In this document: positions 4,951 through 23,474 of the stretch, in pieces | How positions within the stretch are numbered: the first letter of the stretch is position 1 | How the letters are laid out: every line of letters starts with the position of its first letter | Source of the DNA: Naegleria gruberi | Lineage: Eukaryota | Reading direction: 5' to 3' (one strand) | Assembly: GCA_000004985.1 (NCBI GenBank) | Contig: GG738864.1 | Length of the DNA stretch: 64,000 nt | The notes under the pieces: generated by a model | What the model saw: the letters and a program-made list of their open reading frames with translations, nothing else | What the model was told of the DNA's origin: nothing | The model's database searches: none | Program-made: the position numbers and the translations under genes

Positions 4951-5379
4951 ATGAAGAATTTAGCAACACCTATGGTTGAACCATGTTATTTCTTTTTCAA
5001 TGGAGGTTGTTATAGACCTTGCGGTCATTCTCACTGTCCACCTCAACACGAATTGGCAATTTGGAAACAAATTTGGGCTAAAAGAAACTCAAAGAAACAA
5101 AAATACCAAACCGGTGTTTCCAATGAAGAAATGGAATATTTCAAGAAGAAGATGAGAGAGTATTTGGAACAACAAGAAGAAATGAATATGAAAATCAGAA
5201 TGCAATCCAGAGAAATTGAAAGACAACACGATACTATCAATGCCATGAAATGTCAAAGATCATCATTGATTGCTGCTCAATCACCAGTAACTGTTAATAA
5301 TAATTATGTAAATGTTGTGAATGTTCCAGAAAATGGTAATTTCAGAATTAGAACCACTCATACCAGATATTTGCAATAG
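4951..5379 (+). CDS. Small protein with a CCCH-like Cys/His cluster followed by a charged coiled-coil region. The start is uncertain: the ORF is open from 4744 inside repeat B.
   Basis: The 4744..5379 ORF has an in-frame ATG at about 4951 (MKNLATPMVEPCYFFFNGGCYRPCGHSHCPP...). The C-x7-C-x3-C-x3-H spacing is close to, but not a canonical, CCCH finger. A heptad-like charged segment (EYLEQQEEMNMKIRMQSREIERQ) follows. Confidence 0.4.
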   Translation: MKNLATPMVEPCYFFFNGGCYRPCGHSHCPPQHELAIWKQIWAKRNSKKQKYQTGVSNEEMEYFKKKMREYLEQQEEMNMKIRMQSREIERQHDTINAMKCQRSSLIAAQSPVTVNNNYVNVVNVPENGNFRIRTTHTRYLQ

Positions 5380-5546
5380 ATAGACAAGAAATTTCCAAAT
5401 ATGTAAATTGAAAAAAATGTAAAAAAACAAAAAAATGTAAAAACAAACAAAATTAATAAAAATAATTTCAAAAAATTTCTTTATTCAACTTTTTCACAAA
5501 CATTAAAAACTCTTCACACTATTCTCTTCTATTTTTCTATTATTAT

Positions 5547-13251: not shown

Positions 13252-15238
13252 TTATTTCTTGCAATTAGCTTGTTCAATTACGTGGGTCAAATTGAAGAGG
13301 GCAGAGAACTCAGTGATGAGCAAATTTTCATCAAATTGGAACCAATTGATAACACGATACTTTACGTGGCAACCTTTCTTGTTGAATTGAGAAATGTTCT
13401 TTGAGAAACCAGCATATAAATTATTGACTTCAATCTTACTTGTAATATCCTCTGTGATGTTGACTAAAGTATCAAAGAAGCTTGCAAAGTTGTCAATGAT
13501 TTGTTTCTTACCCTTCACATTATTGGATCCTATTGGAATATTGACCTGTGAATCGATGGCAAACAAACTATCCAATAGTGGAATGTCTCTTTCAACTTGT
13601 CCTTTCTGGAAGAGATGAACTCGCTTGATAATTTCCTCATCTCTTGTGGATTTAACACTTTGTTTGTTGGAGTTATCAATGTGAATCAATTTGGAACTCT
13701 CTTTGGCAATATCATAATTGGAACCAATACTTTGTTTAAAATTGAAAAAGTTGCTTGGATCATACTTTCTCTTGATTTCCAATAATCTATTGTAGAAATC
13801 TCCATAATATTCACTCTTCCAATTTGGTAACTTGTCATCAATATAGTTAACGTAAGCACCATCGAAATTGTACTTGACTTTGGAGTAAAATTCTTCAATC
13901 CATTTAGAATTTGTTGTATGTTCTTCCTTCCTATCAAAAATTGCCTTAAACTCAAAGGTAAATTCAGCATTTCTTCTATAGAATGCAGTGGACTCGAGAG
14001 GAATTTCACGAACTCTGCCACCAACATGAGAAAAGATAACCATAGAATGCTTTGATGGTCTATTCTTGACATATTTGTAAATGGTTGCAACAAAGTCACC
14101 ATTGAAATTTCCCAAATTAACCAGGCCAGACTTGACAATACCATATCTATTCTTAATATCAGTAGTGCCAGATGAGAAGGTTTTCATAAATTCTGGGAAT
14201 GTTTGCTTTTTGTGGAAACTCAAAATTCCATTCATTGAGAGGAATGGTTCAATCAATCTTGTTCCCTCTGCAAAATCTCCATTGTAAACAAAAGTCAAAC
14301 AGAATTGATCTTGTAAAATATTAGGGACTTGGAAGAAGAGACCATAAGCAGTCATCTCCTTTGGAATTGATTGAGTCCAGTGATTATAGAATTGCAATAC
14401 ATTAAGCGATTGTTCAAAAGTCCAACATATTTGTGAGGTCATGATTGGTTTCGATTGGTAAACTCTTGTCTTTATGGCAGTCATTACTCCAAAATTACCA
14501 CCACCTCCACCTCTGAGAGCCCAATATAAATCAGGATATGAATTATTATTCACATGAACATAGTCACCATTTGCCAAGACCACATCAAATTCAATAACTT
14601 GATCACTTCCCAATCCATAGGAACGAGACAACATGGAATAGCCTCCTCCCAAAGTAAATCCTGAAACTCCAACCTATAGAGATGAATTATTAAAAGAAAT
14701 TATTAAGAAAAAGATGCAAGAACAAACATACATGTGGACAAGTTCCAGCAACAGGAACAAATGGAGCCAAGGCTGGATAAATTGTATTCCATTGCAATCC
14801 AGCTTCAATATAAGCAATTCCATTCACGGTATCGATAACTTGTGTCTTGTTGAAATATCTCATATCCAACACAAGTTCAGGATTCAATGAATAACCAACA
14901 GCTGAATGTCCACCACATTTAGCACTAAATTGCACTTGATATTTGGATGCAAATTTGACAGTTTCCTGCACATCACGTACATCCAATGGCAATACTACCA
15001 CACGAGGTCTAATCTGATACGAACCATTATCGATATAAATTGATTCATTATACAAATGTGCAAGTTGTGAATTCGATTCAGTACTACTAATTAATTGACC
15101 TTTCAATTTTGCAGTCAGTTCGTGATAGGGAATATTCGACACATGACTAATGGCCGTGATCGGATCCAACAACAAGATACATTCAACAATAAACAACACA
15201 ACAGCAGAGATAATCAGCTGATATCGGAGTCGAGACAT
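13252..15238 (-). CDS. FAD-linked oxidoreductase of the berberine-bridge-enzyme-like / vanillyl-alcohol-oxidase fold (PCMH-type FAD-binding domain). Secreted.
   Basis: complement(join(13252..14673, 14732..15238)). ATG at 15238 (MSRLRYQLIISAVVLFIV..., a signal peptide). Exon 1 ends ...AGTCPH|GTATGT. A 58-nt phase-0 intron follows. Exon 2 begins VGVSGFTLGGGYSMLSRSYGLGSDQVIEFDVVLANG...ALRGGGGGNFGV. These are typical BBE/FAD_binding_4 motifs. Confidence 0.8.
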
Positions 15239-15552
15239 TTTTTTGTAATTTAATTCAATGTGTGAGAAGTATATATTTACTGTTGTTGATTTCAAAGACA
15301 GGAGTGTAAGATAATAGCACAGTTACATTCATACAAGTCGATTCGCCATCTTTGAACTGGGGAAGGATGTATTTCAAGGATTGCTGCGGAGGAAATAATT
15401 GGTGCGAGGCAAAAAAAATGAATAATACGTTCTCTAGCATAACCATATGGAGTTGTTTAAAAGATTTTAAATGGATGCTAATCGATTTGAAAATTGATGG
15501 TAATCTTTGATCTAGCTCACCTAATACATTTTTTGTAAATAATTTTACAATA

Positions 15553-18456
15553 ATGGTGGGCAATCTTCTCAGTTTTTCTACTTCTAACTGGAAAGTAGAA
15601 AAAATGGCATCACACCAAGCAGAGGAAATTTATTCATGTGCTAATAATCATGATCGGAATGATGTGATGATGAGTAGTAGTAATAGTGTTGTTATTAATG
15701 ATCGTCGCGGAATTTTCAAGTCAATTCCTAAAGAAGTTATTTTACAAATTTTCTGTTACTTGTATAAACCAGAAGAGTTTCAAGGCTTTGCGTTGACTTG
15801 TAAATTATGTTATGAAGTGTACGCTGAGGAAATGTCAATGAGTTTGGATGGAATTAGATTGGATTATTTGAATGGTGTGGATCGAAGTGGAAAACCTAAT
15901 CGATTGATTGAATTATTTTCTATGAATGATGGAATGTCGGCTGACAAGTTGGCCATTGATTATGATAGTTACTTTAGAAAGAAGGGGGAATTTTATGAAC
16001 AGTATTTAGTGGATGAGATTCCAAAGTGCACTAACAAAAAGCTTGATAATGAGGATGACATAGTGGATGAAGAGGAATACCTGGAAGAAATGCAAACATG
16101 TATTCCATACCAGGGCGAATCGTCTAATGATTCTGATGAAGAAGAGAGTGAGGAAAGGAAAAAGGTATTCAAATTTCCATTTGTAAATACTTTAGAAAAA
16201 TTCAAAGAGAGATTGAATGAAATTCTGAAAAACAATGCTATGGCTAAAAAGGTAACGGAATGTCTGAATCATTTTAACAATACTACAAAGACCAATGTTA
16301 GATTCATTATTGCAGGTGGATTTGTTACACATCTGGTATCTAATTGTGGTTGTTGTGATATTGATATTTTCACAATTTCTAATGGGTCTAGTGACGAAAT
16401 TATCGATCATTCACTGAAACAAGTATTAACTCATATTGCTATGGAGCTTCGAAAGGAAAAGGTAGATTATAATATATTAAAGACTAATGGCACATTGAAT
16501 CTATTACCAATTACCAATGGAATTAAATCCAATCTGTGTCACAGATATCCAGATGCTGGTCCTATGGATGAAGATGAACTCCCTTGCCAGTTCGTATTGA
16601 GAAGAGTACAATCAATTGAAGAATTAATGTGCTTCTTTGATATTGATTGTTGTAGATTTTGTTACGATTTTGAGAGTGTGTACACCATATTGGAAGGGCT
16701 TAGATCCATGAAATTTAAACTCAATTTTGTTGCCAGACGTCATATTCACACTGGTCTCTATGTAAATAGAGCCATCAAATATAGTAGAAGAGGATTGGAT
16801 ACACTGTGTGTTGATTTGCACCCATTTGAACACAGACTCCATGCACAAACATTCATGACATGGCTCAGAGAATTTTTAAGCTCACATTTCACGGGAATGG
16901 CTGATGAGGGAGACTATGATGATCCATACTTTAATGACGAATCTTGGAATGGTTTTAACACAATAGCTCCATACATGTATATTGACAAGTATGCTGGAGA
17001 TTCTGACTTTGACGAAGAGCCTTACTATTCTATCGTATTGAAAAGTTTGGATTATTGGCTTGTGAAATGTGTTTTGGATAATGGATTGCGTGATGCAATG
17101 TATTCATTCGAGGCAAATGGTGATTACAGGGATGGAAGATGGACGAATGCATTAAAGGATATCACGATAGTGCATAACGTAGAGAAAAATCCTGTTATCG
17201 AGTCAATCATTGAGCACATTGAAAAATATGATATTCACTACTTTTGTCATACCATTGAAGAGTTACTCATCAAACATCCATCCATGTACATTACTGAAGG
17301 TTATTTGGATAGCCATCTCAAAAGCAAGTATGGATTCGATAGGTGCTACTTGTGCAATCAATACAAGATGGACGGCTTTAAATCCATGTGTCACAAATGT
17401 AAATATTGGAATATTGGAATGGAAAAGATGCATAGAGATCTTTCTGGAAAAGTTGCAATCGTTACAGGAGGAAGATGTAAAATAGGTTATGAAACTAGTT
17501 TGCTATTATTGAGAATGAAAGCAACTGTAGTGGTCACAACAAGATTTGGCTTTAATGCACTCTCGAAATTCCAGAAAGAAAGCGACTATAAGGAATGGAA
17601 AGATAATTTGATTATTTACCCTCTGAATTTGAAACATGGACCATCAGTTGTGGAATTTACAACATTTATCAAATCAAAATTCAAGCATGTGGACTTTTTA
17701 GTGAATAATGCAGCTCAAACAGTAAGAAGGCCAGTACCATATTTCACACCTTTGGTTGCAATTGAAAAAAGCCACTCACAATCTTTATATTTGCCATTAG
17801 GATTGGAAGAGAATAGCAGTGAATCCAACACAACACTAGCAGTCAAGGATCTCACCAAACAATTGGTGAATAATGCTCTCAATAGTACTCTTGAAGCTCT
17901 CACTCCGGAGGATTCTACCTATGAATTTAGAAAGGAATTGGATAAGTTTGGTGAATTAATTGATCATCGAACTAGACATACTTGGAATATGGCTCTAAAT
18001 GAAACAAGCACTGCTGAAATAATTGAATGTCAAATGGTGAATAGTATTGCTCCAACACTTTTAGTTTCCAAATTGACTGATTTGCTGAGACCTCAATTGA
18101 GTGATGAGGAATTACTGTCCATTGATTTTGAAAATAACTCACCATATTCGTATGTGGTTAATGTAACTTCACATGAGGGCTCTTTCAATACTACAGGAAA
18201 AACAGATTTCCACATTCAAACCAATCTTTCTAAGGCATCACTCAACATGTTGACGCATTCAGCCGCTAATCAACTTGCCAAACAAGGAATATTGATGAAT
18301 TCGGTGGATGTTGGTTGGATTTCTTCATCTATTCCAACATTTAAAGATCCACCTTTAAAATGTATTGATGGTGCTTACAGAATTTTACATCCAATCCTCA
18401 CCAATTCCACCAGTTATGGTAAATTATTCAAAGACTATAAAGTTGTTGAGTGGTAG
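15553..18456 (+). CDS. Multi-domain protein: an N-terminal F-box-like motif, a central Pol-beta-type nucleotidyltransferase-like motif, and a C-terminal short-chain dehydrogenase/reductase (SDR) Rossmann domain.
   Basis: Uninterrupted 967-aa ORF with ATGs at 15553 and about 15604. The F-box-like motif is IPKEVILQIFCYLYKPEEF. The NTase-like signature is RFIIAGGFVTHLVSNCGCCDIDIF (hGG-x12-DhDh), with a further acidic motif FFDIDCC. The SDR signatures are LSGKVAIVTGGRCKIGYETSLLL (TGxxxxIG) and LVNNAAQ. The canonical YxxxK Tyr is not obvious (..QTNLSKASL..). Confidence 0.65.
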   Translation: MVGNLLSFSTSNWKVEKMASHQAEEIYSCANNHDRNDVMMSSSNSVVINDRRGIFKSIPKEVILQIFCYLYKPEEFQGFALTCKLCYEVYAEEMSMSLDGIRLDYLNGVDRSGKPNRLIELFSMNDGMSADKLAIDYDSYFRKKGEFYEQYLVDEIPKCTNKKLDNEDDIVDEEEYLEEMQTCIPYQGESSNDSDEEESEERKKVFKFPFVNTLEKFKERLNEILKNNAMAKKVTECLNHFNNTTKTNVRFIIAGGFVTHLVSNCGCCDIDIFTISNGSSDEIIDHSLKQVLTHIAMELRKEKVDYNILKTNGTLNLLPITNGIKSNLCHRYPDAGPMDEDELPCQFVLRRVQSIEELMCFFDIDCCRFCYDFESVYTILEGLRSMKFKLNFVARRHIHTGLYVNRAIKYSRRGLDTLCVDLHPFEHRLHAQTFMTWLREFLSSHFTGMADEGDYDDPYFNDESWNGFNTIAPYMYIDKYAGDSDFDEEPYYSIVLKSLDYWLVKCVLDNGLRDAMYSFEANGDYRDGRWTNALKDITIVHNVEKNPVIESIIEHIEKYDIHYFCHTIEELLIKHPSMYITEGYLDSHLKSKYGFDRCYLCNQYKMDGFKSMCHKCKYWNIGMEKMHRDLSGKVAIVTGGRCKIGYETSLLLLRMKATVVVTTRFGFNALSKFQKESDYKEWKDNLIIYPLNLKHGPSVVEFTTFIKSKFKHVDFLVNNAAQTVRRPVPYFTPLVAIEKSHSQSLYLPLGLEENSSESNTTLAVKDLTKQLVNNALNSTLEALTPEDSTYEFRKELDKFGELIDHRTRHTWNMALNETSTAEIIECQMVNSIAPTLLVSKLTDLLRPQLSDEELLSIDFENNSPYSYVVNVTSHEGSFNTTGKTDFHIQTNLSKASLNMLTHSAANQLAKQGILMNSVDVGWISSSIPTFKDPPLKCIDGAYRILHPILTNSTSYGKLFKDYKVVEW

Positions 18457-18495: not shown

Positions 18496-20816
18496 TTATT
18501 GCACTAAACATTTCTTTTGTGGACGAACTTTACTACAATAATTGTCATCTCTGGTGACGGCAATTGTTCTCAAAATGACACTACTCAAATCATCAATGCC
18601 ATATCCTGTTTTGGAGCTAGTTTCAATATAAGTGGCACAACCCATCTTTTTGGCCATCAACTCTCCTTGTTCGAATGTGATTGGTTTTTCTTCATATTTA
18701 AGAATGAACTCCTTATTAAGAATTGAATCAGTACGATAGTCAATCTTGGTATTCACTAATGCCACAGGAGTGTCAGGACAGTGGTGTCTGATTTCTGGAA
18801 GCCATTTGGTGACAACATTGAAAAATGAAGCCTCTGACACACAACTAAAGTTCACTAAGAACAAAGATGTCCCTGGGTAGGACTATTACAATATTATTAC
18901 AAAAAATATAATTTCAATACTTACCAATGGACGCAATCTAAATAATATTAAGAAAACAAAAATAAAAATGATTAATTACCTATCATAATCTAAAATTGAT
19001 TAATTTCAATTAAATCCATTCAAAAAAAACTTACCTTCAGGACCAGCAGTATCCCTTTGTAAATGTTAACAATTATTAAAGAGATAGCTCAAATAACTTA
19101 CCATAGACCGATTGAATAAGTCTTGTCTTCAACTTTTACACTGATATTGTGATTGTCAAACACAGTTGGAATATAATCATTTGGATAATCTCCAGAAGTA
19201 TACCGTATTAATAGTGTTGTTTTACCAACTGCTCCATCTCCTACCGCAACAACCTTAAAAACACCATAAGGAGGATACTTGTCTAACATTTCAACCACAT
19301 GAGAATAGTTTAAAAGTTCAGACTTGGAACAATACTGTCTACCATCTGTACGTTGTTTTACCTCCTCAATTTTCAATGTTCTTTCAATATTCTTCTTTTC
19401 AACTTTTGACATGATGGCTTGAACAGCTTGAATGAGATTTTCCTTGTAATTTGACTTTTTACGTAAATAGGAATCGAAAATTCTTGATTGAGTGGTATCA
19501 AAAACATATTTACGAAGCACATAATCATAGGAACCAACAGTTTGCTTTGATGCCTTCTTAAAATCACTCAATTTTTTGAAATAAAAATCTTCCCAATATT
19601 GATCTTCAGTTGTTAAAGTGCAAATTCTCAATGATTTGGAAACCAAATGTAATTTCATTAAATCTTGAATGCTAAGAAATGATAGAACTGTTCTGAAAAT
19701 GTCATCATTCACCTTCTCATTAAATAAGTCAATATTAAATGAGCTTGTTTCTGATTTGATTATTGATTTTCCATCTTTCTTACTTGAAGTAATAGACGTA
19801 GTTGTTGGTGGAGAAACTGTAAAAACGTCAGGAGTCTTTTGAAATAATCCTCCAACTACAAAATAAGTAATAGAGGAATCAGTGGAAGGAATTTGCACAA
19901 GAGCATGAAGTACAGGTTGAGCTTCTTCCTTATTAGAATCATTGAAAATGGATGAAAGAGAATGAGTTGTATCAATCTTCCAACCTTGGCTAACATTTCC
20001 CAAATCAAGACATGTACAATCTGTGAAATTTTGATTTTGATTACAACCACCAACACTATACAATGTGTTTCCTTCCAAAACCATTGAATGTCCATATCTA
20101 GCAAACTGTTCACTCAAATTTGATGCAATAATCTCAGCATTAACTACCAATCTGTCAACACTCTCTACCAATGAATCAAGTGAAATCTTAATTGTATCTC
20201 TAATAATGGAATTAGCTGTTTTACCTCCATGAATATACCACTCTCCTGTTTCCTGATTCAAAACAGATGCATGATGATATCTCTTTGCAATTTGTTGTGA
20301 ATTTGATTCAATTTCCACAACTTTCCATTCAAATGTAGTCAAATTCAATTTGAATAATTCATTGGATGCAAAGCTATTATTATCATAACCACCAAACACA
20401 AATAATTGATCCTTAAAAACCACAGCTGATTGACCATAACGAGGAGAAATCAAATCTGATCCACTAGTCTGTAACTGTGTCCATAAATTATGTTCAAATT
20501 GATACAACCAAACATCTTTATGAAAACCATTCGATTTACCACCAAATAAAATCATTTCGTCTCGATTTCTCAAATAGGCAGAGTGACAATTTCTTGCACA
20601 TGGAATTAATTGTTGTTCTTGTTGATCAATTGATGTTAAATTCCTCCACAATTGTGTTGTAACATTAATTTCAATTAGATCATTACAATAAATGAGTGGT
20701 CTTGCTGAGGAAATGTCTGGATTTTTAATATAACCTCCGAATAGATAGATTTTATTGTTGTCTCTGTAAACACCGCTGTGACCAATACGAAGTGGTAGTG
20801 TGGAGAGTAATGACAT
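18496..20816 (-). CDS. Kelch-repeat beta-propeller, an F-box-like motif, and a C-terminal Rac/Rho-family small GTPase domain in one polypeptide. Five exons including three micro-exons.
   Basis: complement(join(18496..18882, 18925..18937, 18980..18989, 19035..19054, 19102..20816)). ATG at 20816 (aaaaaATG). The Kelch motifs are KIYLFGGY, MILFGGKS, QLFVFGGYDN, EWYIHGGK and TLYSVGGCN. The F-box-like motif is IFRTVLSFLSIQDLMKLHLVSKSL. The GTPase G1 motif is KVVAVGDGAVGKTTLLIRYT..IPTVFDN..YSIGLW. The micro-exons spliced with GTAAGT/GTAATT donors restore W|DTAGPE|DYD|RLRPL|SYP...LFLVNFSCVSEASFFNVVTKWLPEIRHHCPDTPVALVNTKIDYR. Introns are 42-47 nt. Confidence 0.8.
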
Positions 20817-21341: not shown

Positions 21342-23474
21342 ATGACAGGCAAAGAACAAAATACTCACCAGATTCTCCCCAAAGCTTCCTCTAACGCTCT
21401 ACAAACAGTACAATCAGAACAATATGATTATCTTGAGGACCAAAATGTCGATGAGTTAATTTGTTCAATTTGTTTGTTTCCGTTTGTTGATCCAATTTCA
21501 CATAGTACATGTGGAAATACCTTCTGTTCAACATGTGTGGAAAAGGTTGTGAATTGTCCAATGTGTGGTGAAGATGAATTCAAGAAGAATTGTTCACCAA
21601 GTGCAAAGGTGGTCATAAACATGTTGGATAAATTGAAAGTTAGGTGTGGAATGTGCAAGACAATTGTCCCAAGAGGCGAACTGAAAGACCATCAAGACAA
21701 ATATTGTCCACTCCATGGAGCCTATCAACAAGTTGAAGAATTAAAGAAGAAGTTGGAAGCAGAACACCTTGAAAAGCTTGAGATTGCTCAAAAAGAACTT
21801 GAAGAAAAGATGAAAAGTTTGCAAGTAGATCATGAACAATATTTGCAAAAAGCACAAGAGAATTTGACAAGGAGAGAAGAGGAATTACTCCAACAAGCAA
21901 AGAAAAAAGAAGAATTGTTGGAAAACCAAATGAAGGAACTTAAAAATCAAGTTGTGGCCAGAGAGAAATTTGAATCAACCAACAAACCTATCCATTTAAA
22001 TGTTGGTGGAACTATTCTTACTGTTTCATTGGGAGCTTTTATTCACAATGAAAGAGAACCTGATAATTTATTCAAGAAAATGTTCACTGGCGAGTATCCA
22101 TTGTATCAAACTCCATCAAAGAAATTCAATGATCCTATTTATTTCATTGATTGTGATCCAGTTATTTTCAAACTCATTCTTGATTGGTTGAAATTTGGTA
22201 TCATTGGAAATGAATTGAGTGATGACATGAAACAATCACTTTTATGTTCTTGCAATTCGTTCGGTATTGAAAATATAACCAAACATTTAAAGGAGAAACA
22301 CAAACAAGTAGCCAAGATGTCACAATTTGACTTTATGAATGTTGTCAATCTTGCAAGAAGTCAAAAAAGCAAACTAAATTTGAGTGGCCTTGATTTAAGA
22401 AAATTAGTGTTAAACAGTACGGATTTGAAGAATGCAGAAATTCTTGGATCTGACTTCAGTGGAATGAATTTGAAAAACACTGATTTCAAAGGAGGAATCT
22501 TGATAGGATGCAATTTCAGTAATTGCACTTTAACAAGTGTAAGAATTCAAGATTGTAATTTGGAAGGATGTGACTTTTCAAATACTATCTTTAAAAATAC
22601 TGACATTTTGAAAAACAATTTGTCAGGTGCCAATTTTGAAAATGCTCAATTTGAAAAGTGCAAAATTCAATGGCATTTTAAAAAGGGAAGAGATAATAAT
22701 TTGAAATATTGTAAATTTGTTGATTGTAATTTCGACGGATCAATATTTGAAGAAATTGATTTTTTTGAATCTATTTTATCATCAAGTAATATATTTAATA
22801 CTGGAACAATCAAGAATGCAGATTTAAGACAATGGAAAGATTTATCCAAATTCAAAGAAATGAAATTTGATTCATGTGTGTTTAATTTTACTGAAGAAAC
22901 AACAAAGGATATCATAGTTCCATTTGAATGTGATATTATTGACTTTGAAACCTCTTTGGCATTATATTCACATACTGAAAGTAAAGCAATTCCTCAATTA
23001 CTATATAAGGGAACAAGAGATGGATTTAATGGTTATTCCTTTCATCCTAAATGTGATAATCGCGGCCCAACATTAACAATTATCAAATCAGAACATGACC
23101 AAATATTTGGTGGATTTACCTCTAAACCTTGGACATCAAACAGATCACCACAGACCTATGTTTCAGATGAATCTGCATTTATTTTCAAAATTGAAAAAGA
23201 TTCAACAAATCAAAATTATCAATTTAGAAAATTCAATATCAAACAAGATAAGAAACAATATGCTATTAACGTTTTTGAAGGTTTTTTGCCAAAGTTTGGG
23301 GAAGACATTTATATTTGCAATGATTGTGATTCTCAAAATCAATCATATTCAGGATTAGGCTATGCTTATGAATCACCAAACAACTTTTCGAGCAATGAGA
23401 CACAAAGCTATTTGGCAGGAAGTTCCCCTTTCAAAGTTAAAGAAATAGAAGTTTTTCTTATTAAAAATTATTAA
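21342..23474 (+). CDS. RING finger, TRAF-type zinc finger, coiled coil, BTB/POZ (KCTD-like), pentapeptide repeats and a C-terminal TLDc domain.
   Basis: ATG at 21342 (aaaaaaaataATG). The RING is CSICLFPFVDPISHSTCGNTFCSTCV..CPMC. The TRAF-zf-like part is KVRCGMCKTIVPRGELKDHQDKYCP. The coiled coil has KK..EE repeats. The BTB part is IHLNVGGTILTVSLGAF...FIDCDPVIFKLILDWLKFG. The pentapeptide repeats are NLSGLDLRKLVLNSTDLKNAEILGSDFSGMNLKNTDFKGGILIGCNFSNC... The TLDc part is LLYKGTRDGFNGYSFHPKCDNRGPTLTIIKSEHDQIFGGFTSKPW. Confidence 0.8.
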   Translation: MTGKEQNTHQILPKASSNALQTVQSEQYDYLEDQNVDELICSICLFPFVDPISHSTCGNTFCSTCVEKVVNCPMCGEDEFKKNCSPSAKVVINMLDKLKVRCGMCKTIVPRGELKDHQDKYCPLHGAYQQVEELKKKLEAEHLEKLEIAQKELEEKMKSLQVDHEQYLQKAQENLTRREEELLQQAKKKEELLENQMKELKNQVVAREKFESTNKPIHLNVGGTILTVSLGAFIHNEREPDNLFKKMFTGEYPLYQTPSKKFNDPIYFIDCDPVIFKLILDWLKFGIIGNELSDDMKQSLLCSCNSFGIENITKHLKEKHKQVAKMSQFDFMNVVNLARSQKSKLNLSGLDLRKLVLNSTDLKNAEILGSDFSGMNLKNTDFKGGILIGCNFSNCTLTSVRIQDCNLEGCDFSNTIFKNTDILKNNLSGANFENAQFEKCKIQWHFKKGRDNNLKYCKFVDCNFDGSIFEEIDFFESILSSSNIFNTGTIKNADLRQWKDLSKFKEMKFDSCVFNFTEETTKDIIVPFECDIIDFETSLALYSHTESKAIPQLLYKGTRDGFNGYSFHPKCDNRGPTLTIIKSEHDQIFGGFTSKPWTSNRSPQTYVSDESAFIFKIEKDSTNQNYQFRKFNIKQDKKQYAINVFEGFLPKFGEDIYICNDCDSQNQSYSGLGYAYESPNNFSSNETQSYLAGSSPFKVKEIEVFLIKNY

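Follow-up and report, generated by a model that had tools for sequence, protein, structure and literature searches.

We analyzed a 64,000-nucleotide stretch of Naegleria gruberi DNA (contig GG738864.1 of assembly GCA_000004985.1; hereafter the window) and found that a gene at 15553–18456 on its plus strand encodes a fusion of an F-box-like N-terminus, a nucleotidyltransferase (NTase) domain of the Pol-beta superfamily, and a C-terminal short-chain dehydrogenase/reductase (SDR) that carries its own zinc ribbon. Comparison with related proteins indicates that this fusion is a conserved heterolobosean family, predicted to be under selection, and not unique to this gene; a first-pass annotation made from the sequence of the window had not recognized the combination. 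We tentatively propose that the protein tails or repairs the 3' ends of RNA and is connected to an SCF (Skp1-Cul1-F-box) ubiquitin ligase.

A conserved fusion in Heterolobosea

The 967-residue open reading frame (ORF) is uninterrupted and in frame, as the first-pass annotation had described it, and every motif quoted there was found in its place: FIIAGGF at residues 251–257, CDIDIF at 268–273, FFDIDCCR at 361–368, VTGGRCKIG at 637–645, and NNAAQT at 718–723. The protein aligns end to end with eight homologs at 35–51% identity, the alignments extending from the F-box to the C-terminal Trp. When the 162 best NTase-family representatives were parsed with hidden Markov models (HMMs), an NTase joined to an SDR was found in at least 32, usually with the ribbon and often with an F-box. 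These SDR-bearing NTase proteins are concentrated in Heterolobosea and in metagenomic eukaryotes. Among named organisms, the fusion was found in N. gruberi, in N. lovaniensis with three paralogs, in N. fowleri and Willaertia magna with two each, and in Acrasis kona. A gene-fusion artifact was considered and rejected, given the unbroken ORF and the recurrence of the fusion in these five species and in many metagenomic sequences.

Public records label the homologs "hypothetical" or "F-box domain-containing," and a literature search found no paper on the fusion, on the zinc-ribbon SDR subfamily, or on the expansion of this NTase in giant viruses and protists. The NTase is assigned by transitivity to an existing Pfam family (PF26128), and the fusion is assembled from known kinds of domain and is not a categorical novelty. 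Additionally, a fragment 99% identical to the fusion protein is encoded at 137–1084 of a 1,156-bp metagenomic contig (ENA ERZ929261, run ERR1078381, PRJEB11402), so that the organism or a very close relative has been sampled environmentally.

The nucleotidyltransferase domain

Searches of Pfam and NCBIfam, and of the Protein Data Bank (PDB) with phmmer, gave no match for residues 100–625. The AlphaFold2 model of the NTase region, by contrast with these searches, has a confident Pol-beta NTase fold (predicted local distance difference test score, pLDDT, 80.8), in which AGG 254–256 lies between the first strand and a helix and D269-x-D271 lies on the next strand, as in Pol-beta NTases. The signature of the superfamily (hG[GS], followed 9–13 residues on by [DE]h[DE]h) is present as FIIAGGF x10 CDIDIF, covering residues 251–273. 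Across 145 representatives of the family, GG, DxD, and FD show at least 90% conservation, and within the close family they are invariant; in the broad family both Asp residues of GG...DxD are invariant and GG is at least 90% conserved. Conservation of at least 90% among the 145 representatives was also observed for Q346, F362-D363, N391, and R406/K409/Y410/R413.

Profile searches gave further matches to NTases. The phage family phrog_1614, annotated "nucleotidyltransferase," is matched by the N. gruberi protein and by six of six diverse relatives, Pfam Polbeta is matched by one relative, and a narrower profile searched against the PDB produced a marginal match to the AbiEii-type NTase AbiGII (E 0.002); a broader profile of 28 members returned nothing meaningful from the PDB. 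The closest folds are template-independent RNA 3'-end polymerases, namely CCA-adding enzymes, poly(A) polymerase (PAP), and TENT5. The first-pass call of a Pol-beta NTase is thus upheld by motif conservation and by the predicted fold, the region having neither a different fold nor an unconserved GG...DxD motif.

The same annotation had read FFDIDCC as an acidic beta-strand, and here the model disagrees. FFDIDCC sits at the end of a helix, only its first Asp (D363) is conserved family-wide, and an alignment of profiles with Cca/PcnB by hhalign, which is weak and colinear (E 0.011), pairs it with RRDxTIN, the motif B of class II NTases. The same alignment places YDG of the family opposite motif C of Cca/PcnB and R..KY..RGF opposite their motif D region. 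Judged from the model and this alignment, FFDIDCC probably corresponds to motif B, as opposed to the strand of the third catalytic carboxylate. The candidates for that carboxylate, D363 and D372, fall after a helix in the NTase model, and strands 102–115 and 141–148 of the model hold no conserved acidic residue, with Q346 conserved instead. The YDG motif, in which Asp and Gly are at least 90% conserved across the family, reads YDF in this protein (G373F; 16660–16686 of the window), and the Gly is kept in all close homologs. One N. lovaniensis homolog (P0005, C9374_004189) lacks exactly the GG...DxD segment (columns ~420–460 of the homolog alignment) and has no PF26128 match; most likely an intron was wrongly called in its public gene model and the segment is not truly lost.

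With regard to family placement, precomputed matches to PF26128 ("Gad2") cover the same domain in homologs P0001–P0004 and P0006–P0017, with E <= 1e-5 for P0001, P0003, and P0006. Given that these homologs match and that the N. gruberi protein is 38–56% identical to close homologs across the domain, it can be assigned to PF26128 by transitivity. We read the label "Gad2" as Gabija anti-defense protein 2; activity against Gabija is a phage phenotype that a eukaryotic protein would not be expected to show. A tblastn search of 50,697 phage records with the core of the N. gruberi protein and two standalone relatives gave no match. The protein also has no match to PF01743, the family of class II CCA/PAP enzymes, E. 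coli Cca and PcnB were not significant against the family HMMs (hmmsearch), and the tRNA-binding body and tail domains of CCA/PAP enzymes were not detected in it. Because these tests of sequence and motif failed, we do not file the protein in the CCA/PAP family: it is not a member at the level of sequence, though its fold resembles the class II head and neck.

An exhaustive HMM search recovered 2,598 cluster representatives at E <= 1e-3, 324 of them at E <= 1e-10. A Foldseek search of viral structures found the NTase fold to be abundant in giant viruses of protists, with E values down to 1e-9, and in the carriers (Pithovirus, Pandoravirus, Bodo saltans virus, and klosneuviruses) its fusion partners are ankyrin, BTB, F-box, or vWA domains. 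Among 88 more distant NTase representatives, BTB_2 is present in 12 and an SDR in 5. The recurrence of BTB and F-box fusions implies that the NTase domain has repeatedly been joined to adaptors of cullin-RING ligases. The linker domain that follows the NTase (residues 429–594) is conserved only within the fusion family, and no structural or sequence relatives of it were found.

The zinc-ribbon SDR module

The C-terminal Rossmann domain of the SDR type noted in the first-pass annotation was confirmed, with adh_short scoring well above its gathering threshold (53.2 versus 26.6 bits) and an NNAG-type motif present as NNAAQT. A search with the ribbon and SDR together yielded 730 relatives, mostly bacterial proteins of ~456 residues that are 37–40% identical over 99% of the query. 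The Tyr of the classical YxxxK motif, which had been reported as not evident, is indeed absent: T890 occupies the aligned position, while the Ser (in NVTSHEG) and K894 are retained. This substitution extends through the subfamily, since HxHTNMxK, with Thr for Tyr, occurs in 116 of 120 relatives; the CxxC...CxxC zinc ribbon is found in 116 of 120 as well, bacterial ones included. The canonical TGxxxGxG loop is not matched, Lys standing at the central Gly position, and an insertion of ~140 residues lies between NNAAQT and NVTSHEG. The signature of the subfamily comprises TGxRxKxG, TTRF, NNAAQT, NV[TS]SxEG, and H-x-H-T-N-M-x-K, and its members, known also from protists, were counted in no fewer than 322 GTDB species genomes representing at least 12 phyla. 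Given that Thr is found in nearly all relatives, the missing Tyr is a conserved trait, and the comparison indicates that the SDR belongs to a distinct, widespread, and uncharacterized subfamily with an ancient conserved Tyr loss, as opposed to decay in this gene.

RNA-related neighbors of standalone SDR genes

Several bacterial genes for standalone members of this SDR subfamily lie beside genes of RNA metabolism. In Flavobacterium the gene order is an Rnl1-type ligase, PNKP, TatD, COG2454, a conserved 229-residue protein, and the SDR; in Tenacibaculum it is RlaP, COG2454, an Rnl2-type ligase, the same conserved protein, an M90 peptidase, and the SDR; and in Fluviicola COG2454 is followed by the SDR. 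The repair cluster recurs in Chryseobacterium and Mucilaginibacter, rearranged between genera. RlaP was reportedly named by Burroughs and Aravind in 2016 (Nucleic Acids Research, NAR). This Pol-beta NTase extends damaged RNA 3' ends by one or two nucleoside monophosphates (PMC12776372), and COG2454 (DUF434/DUF5616) is a predicted NYN RNase (PMC5499597).

In a second, divergent clade, with SDR proteins of ~516 residues, the flanking genes encode a cold-shock-domain protein and two or three DEAD-box helicases, of which one is of the DbpA type, in two gene orders. A 2H protein (2'-5' RNA-ligase superfamily) is the immediate neighbor of the SDR in two bacterial loci, and in N. lovaniensis the gene for P0005 is divergently paired with one for a 153-residue 2H phosphoesterase (LigT, AKAP7_NLS-like; 5059–5520, minus strand, of PYSW02000020.1, locus L013), an enzyme that processes RNA ends. 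Naegleria is itself rich in RNA-repair enzymes, with an expanded toolkit (PMC4408790).

We also observed a conserved protein of ~229 residues, without a Pfam match, encoded directly upstream of the SDR or near it in Flavobacterium, Tenacibaculum, Chryseobacterium, and Aquimarina, which is a candidate for a dedicated SDR partner.

The F-box-like N-terminus

Against the F-box-like family PF12937, the N. gruberi protein scored 19.2 bits at full length and 23.8 bits as an isolated segment, just below the gathering threshold of 24.3. At the level of the family, PF12937 is matched by 16 of 24 members and PF00646 by 13 of 24 (best E 3e-6). Moreover, a profile of the F-box region searched against the PDB matched 18 chains, all from F-box proteins (best E 0.0047), including Legionella AnkB, FBXW7, Skp2, Dia2, FBXO31, and TIR1. 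The family profiles and the PDB matches agree with the first-pass reading of the N-terminus, and the prediction that residues 58–93 form an F-box is sound at the family level.

The W. magna ortholog (P0003; locus L011, 6001–9354) contains an A20-type zinc finger (PF01754, E 6e-7, residues 488–510) and a long acidic/basic insert, which together separate its NTase core from the linker domain. A20 fingers bind ubiquitin, and this finger fits the F-box and a link to the ubiquitin system. Naegleria also has an F-box fused to Vms1/VLRF-1, an RNA-quality-control enzyme (PMC6514570).

Feature coordinates and neighboring genes

The features of the fusion gene and its surroundings, together with the positions of two sets of bacterial SDR loci, are collected in Table 1.

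Table 1. Positions of features in the window and, in the last two rows, in bacterial loci that encode the standalone SDR
Feature	Position	Strand	Remarks
Whole gene	15553..18456	+	Single exon, 967 aa, stop codon included; alternative start M18
F-box-like domain, residues 58-93 (IPKEVILQIF...)	15724..15831	+	PF12937, 23.8 bits, E 3.9e-5, isolated segment
Family-specific post-F-box motif SLDxIRLxYLN...RLIxLF, residues 97-122	15841..15918	+	R, L, N at least 90% conserved, 24 members
Acidic low-complexity linker, residues 165-204	16045..16164	+	Length-variable, unalignable among homologs
Pol-beta-superfamily NTase domain, assigned by transitivity to the PF26128 "Gad2" family; predicted class II CCA/PAP-like head and neck fold; residues 205-428	16165..16836	+	
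Motif A, catalytic type: A254-G255-G256...D269-I-D271 (FIIAGGF x10 CDIDIF)	16303..16371	+	Invariant in close family; lines up with PcnB GGGVRD..DFD
Strand CQFVLRR with near-invariant Q346	16585..16605	+	Q at least 90% in 145 representatives; beta-strand 141-148 of model
FFDIDCCR (361-368) and CYDFESVYT (370-378), motif-B-like and motif-C-like	16633..16686	+	F362, D363, D372 family-wide
Neck-helix motif R406...K409-Y410..R413-G414	16765..16794	+	R, K, Y, R invariant in 28 diverse members, at least 90% in 145
Family-specific linker domain, mostly helical, residues 429-594	16837..17334	+	
Zinc ribbon C598-x2-C601...C613-x2-C616, belongs to SDR module	17344..17400	+	4 Cys invariant; CxxC...CxxC in 116/120 SDR relatives
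Non-canonical classical-type SDR, residues 629-967	17437..18453	+	PF00106, E 3.4e-14, 53.2 bits
Dinucleotide-binding loop VTGGRCKIG (TGxRxKxG variant), residues 637-645	17461..17487	+	T, G, R, K, G invariant in 12 diverse bacterial members
SDR active-site region: NVTSHEG (Ser) and H887-I-Q-T890-N-L-S-K894	18160..18246	+	
Divergent intergenic spacer, 314 bp, between fusion gene and oxidase gene	15239..15552		
BBE-like FAD oxidase, two exons, signal-peptide-like N-terminus	13252..15238	-	FAD_binding_4 E 5e-15, BBE E 8e-18
Loci of the ~516-aa SDR clade	L006 305-5476; L008 8697-11641; L087; L093		
Conserved ~229-aa protein near the SDR	L004 4310-4999; L005 3414-4100; L016 9307-9996; L017 9242-9895; L019 9300-9959		

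The first-pass annotation had paired the fusion gene with the BBE-like FAD oxidase gene that diverges from it. The oxidase is real (its ATG is at 15238, and its short intron lies at ~14653–14689), as is the spacer between the two genes, but a functional pairing is unsupported. At the related loci compared (L001, L011, L012, and L013, comprising three N. lovaniensis paralogs and one W. magna gene), a FAD_binding_4/BBE neighbor is absent from four out of four. Because none of them has such a neighbor, coupling to the BBE oxidase was rejected and the pairing is treated as coincidental, the adjacency of this unrelated gene looking accidental. In the C-terminal ~110 residues of the oxidase (13252–14652, minus strand), after the BBE motif, we observed a weak SnoaL_2-like match (E 0.0027).

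The window is AT-rich (~34% GC), and the closest relatives of its genes are from Naegleria, Willaertia, and Acrasis. Its other genes are unrelated housekeeping and repeat-domain genes. The gene directly downstream (18496–20816, minus strand; ORFs 19098–20816 and 18496–18864, ~230 bp apart) appears to encode Kelch beta-propeller repeats, a sub-threshold F-box, and a small GTPase of the Ras/Rho type that a short intron interrupts, an unusual architecture. A 710-residue protein with pentapeptide repeats and a C-terminal TLDc domain is encoded at 21342–23474 on the plus strand.

Discussion

RNA is the substrate that we favor for the fusion protein because the nearest folds to the NTase are those of RNA 3'-end polymerases and because the standalone SDR has RNA-related neighbors. 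In this proposal, the NTase would add nucleotides, without a template, to the 3'-OH ends of RNA (either tRNA or damaged RNA), with D269 and D271 binding metal. The zinc-ribbon SDR, which probably binds NADP(H), would act on the terminal ribose or nucleotide of the same substrate, or would make the reaction depend on redox or cofactor state. The F-box would dock the enzyme on Skp1-Cul1, placing the level of the enzyme, or the proteins bound to its RNA clients, under ubiquitin control. As the NTase and SDR are permanently fused, their active sites should have a common substrate. By contrast, for the small-molecule tailoring or signaling-nucleotide modification suggested in the first-pass annotation we found no positive evidence, the nearest folds and the informative SDR contexts being related to RNA. 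A more specific version of the proposal, which we consider unlikely, is that the SDR subfamily represents a new kind of RNA-end enzyme, an NADP(H)-dependent oxidoreductase whose target is the terminal ribose or a damaged sugar of RNA, and that in Heterolobosea it is coupled to the CCA/PAP-like NTase, such that a 3' end would be redox-healed and then re-extended under SCF control. If true, RNA repair would be found to include redox chemistry as a further kind of reaction.

Several observations weigh against assigning the protein to RNA tailing or repair. With respect to the NTase, a third catalytic carboxylate is not assignable from the model and conservation, motifs B and D of the CCA enzymes are not conserved, and the sequence similarity to Cca/PcnB is not significant. 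With respect to the SDR, the subfamily has no characterized member, and, with the catalytic Tyr absent and the Gly loop non-canonical, its redox activity is only predicted. A scan for operon partners that covered 241 same-strand neighbors at 80 diverse bacterial loci (108 first-tier and 133 second-tier) found no universal SDR partner, with ~100 unrelated Pfam families in each tier, and seed searches find the repair cluster in some Bacteroidota only; because there is no universal partner across the 80 loci, we lowered the link to RNA repair from a general one to one confined to particular clades. RlaP (PF10127) represents a different Pol-beta family with no match to the N. gruberi protein, making the bacterial parallel an analogy. 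Finally, genes for RNA repair (RNA ligase, PNKP, or end-healing enzymes) are absent from the window, and gene neighborhood carries little weight in eukaryotes.

An alternative that we regard as somewhat unlikely is that the fusion is a module of virus-host conflict, in which the PF26128 NTase would be primarily an effector of immunity or counter-immunity that makes or consumes a nucleotide-derived signal or nucleotidylates a protein, the SDR would alter the nucleotide, and the F-box would link detection to the destruction, through ubiquitin, of a target from the virus or the host. PF26128 takes its name from an anti-defense protein (phage Gad2, acting against Gabija), and giant viruses of amoebae have a massive expansion of the fold family, with fusions to ANK, BTB, F-box, and vWA domains; the presence of BTB_2 on 12 of the 88 distant relatives, the several paralogs in each Naegleria genome, and a bacterial SDR that adjoins a SIR2-HerA system are also consistent with this possibility. 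However, neither the protein nor its bacterial SDR relative has a PADLOC match, the SDR is stable and seemingly single-copy across at least 12 bacterial phyla with no defense-island signature at the 80 loci, and 35–51% conservation across genera is atypical of genes engaged in an arms race.

It is also quite improbable, in our estimation, that the protein is a non-catalytic substrate receptor of an SCF ligase, its NTase-like and SDR-like parts being pseudo-enzymes that bind a ligand or client. The C-terminal part of an F-box protein normally binds the substrate, and such a role would accommodate the absent Tyr and non-canonical Gly-rich loop of the SDR, the third NTase carboxylate that was not identified and the invariant Gln on the positionally matching strand, and the change of the family YDG to YDF. 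Against this, DxD, GG, FD, and R..KY..R are conserved over at least 145 divergent representatives of the NTase, the SDR motifs TGxRxKxG and NNAAQT, together with its Ser, its Lys, and both His of HxH, are near-invariant from bacteria to eukaryotes, and the bacterial relatives are without any F-box. The near-invariance of these SDR residues argues for a functional active site and not for decay. Lastly, a small-molecule tailoring pair, in which the fusion protein and the secreted oxidase would serve one secondary-metabolite pathway, is very improbable: the two genes are adjacent with a common upstream region of 314 bp, and SDRs and BBE oxidases are usual tailoring enzymes, but the oxidase neighbor is missing from all four related loci, its signal-peptide-like N-terminus contrasts with an F-box fusion protein that would be cytosolic or nuclear, other biosynthetic genes were not found nearby, and the best NTase fold matches are RNA enzymes.

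If the proposal of an RNA 3'-end enzyme under SCF control is correct, permanent fusion to a second enzyme would narrow the search for the substrate of PF26128. The association of the SDR subfamily with RNA ligase, PNKP, the NYN RNase, RlaP, and DEAD-box helicases would suggest an unexplored RNA-directed redox step for these enzymes, and the F-box and BTB fusions in amoebae and giant viruses would hint that, in the biology of protists and their viruses, the chemistry of nucleotides or RNA is linked to ubiquitin signaling. If it is wrong, the gene encodes an ordinary lineage-specific multidomain protein that is correctly annotated.

Comparison with known systems

The class II CCA/PAP enzymes (PF01743; e.g., PDB 3h37, 9kma, 3aql, and 1miv) carry GG...DxD at the place of motif A, and the order of their downstream elements is colinear with that of the N. 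gruberi protein. The elements themselves differ, in that RRD of motif B and EDxxR of motif D are replaced in this family by FDxDCC and R..KY..RGF. Gad2 of SPbeta-like phages is likewise an AlphaFold-predicted NTase, PF26128 covers the same domain in the homologs of the N. gruberi protein, and this protein and its relatives match a phage NTase PHROG. Gad2, however, stands alone as a phage protein of ~400 residues directed against a bacterial defense (PMC12904381), whereas the eukaryotic N. gruberi protein has its NTase joined to an F-box and an SDR. The NTase proteins of giant viruses and protists contain the same domain and present the same theme of an N-terminal cullin-RING adaptor; most are without the zinc-ribbon SDR, a module that ~20% of the best 162 possess.

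The classical SDRs, such as FabG and the carbonyl and menthone reductases, have in common with the N. gruberi protein the Rossmann fold, NNAxx, Ser, and Lys, whereas its own subfamily is set apart by Thr in HxHTNMxK, TGxRxKxG, the ~140-residue insertion, and an obligatory N-terminal zinc ribbon. In the RlaP clusters, a Pol-beta NTase stands beside RNA-end enzymes, and the standalone SDR is present in such clusters in Bacteroidota, once with RlaP itself. That association is by operon and in few bacteria, whereas the N. gruberi protein is a fusion with no RNA ligase or PNKP nearby. As RlaP is also a Pol-beta NTase, an NTase and this SDR are partnered by operon in bacteria, where the NTase is of another family, and by fusion here.

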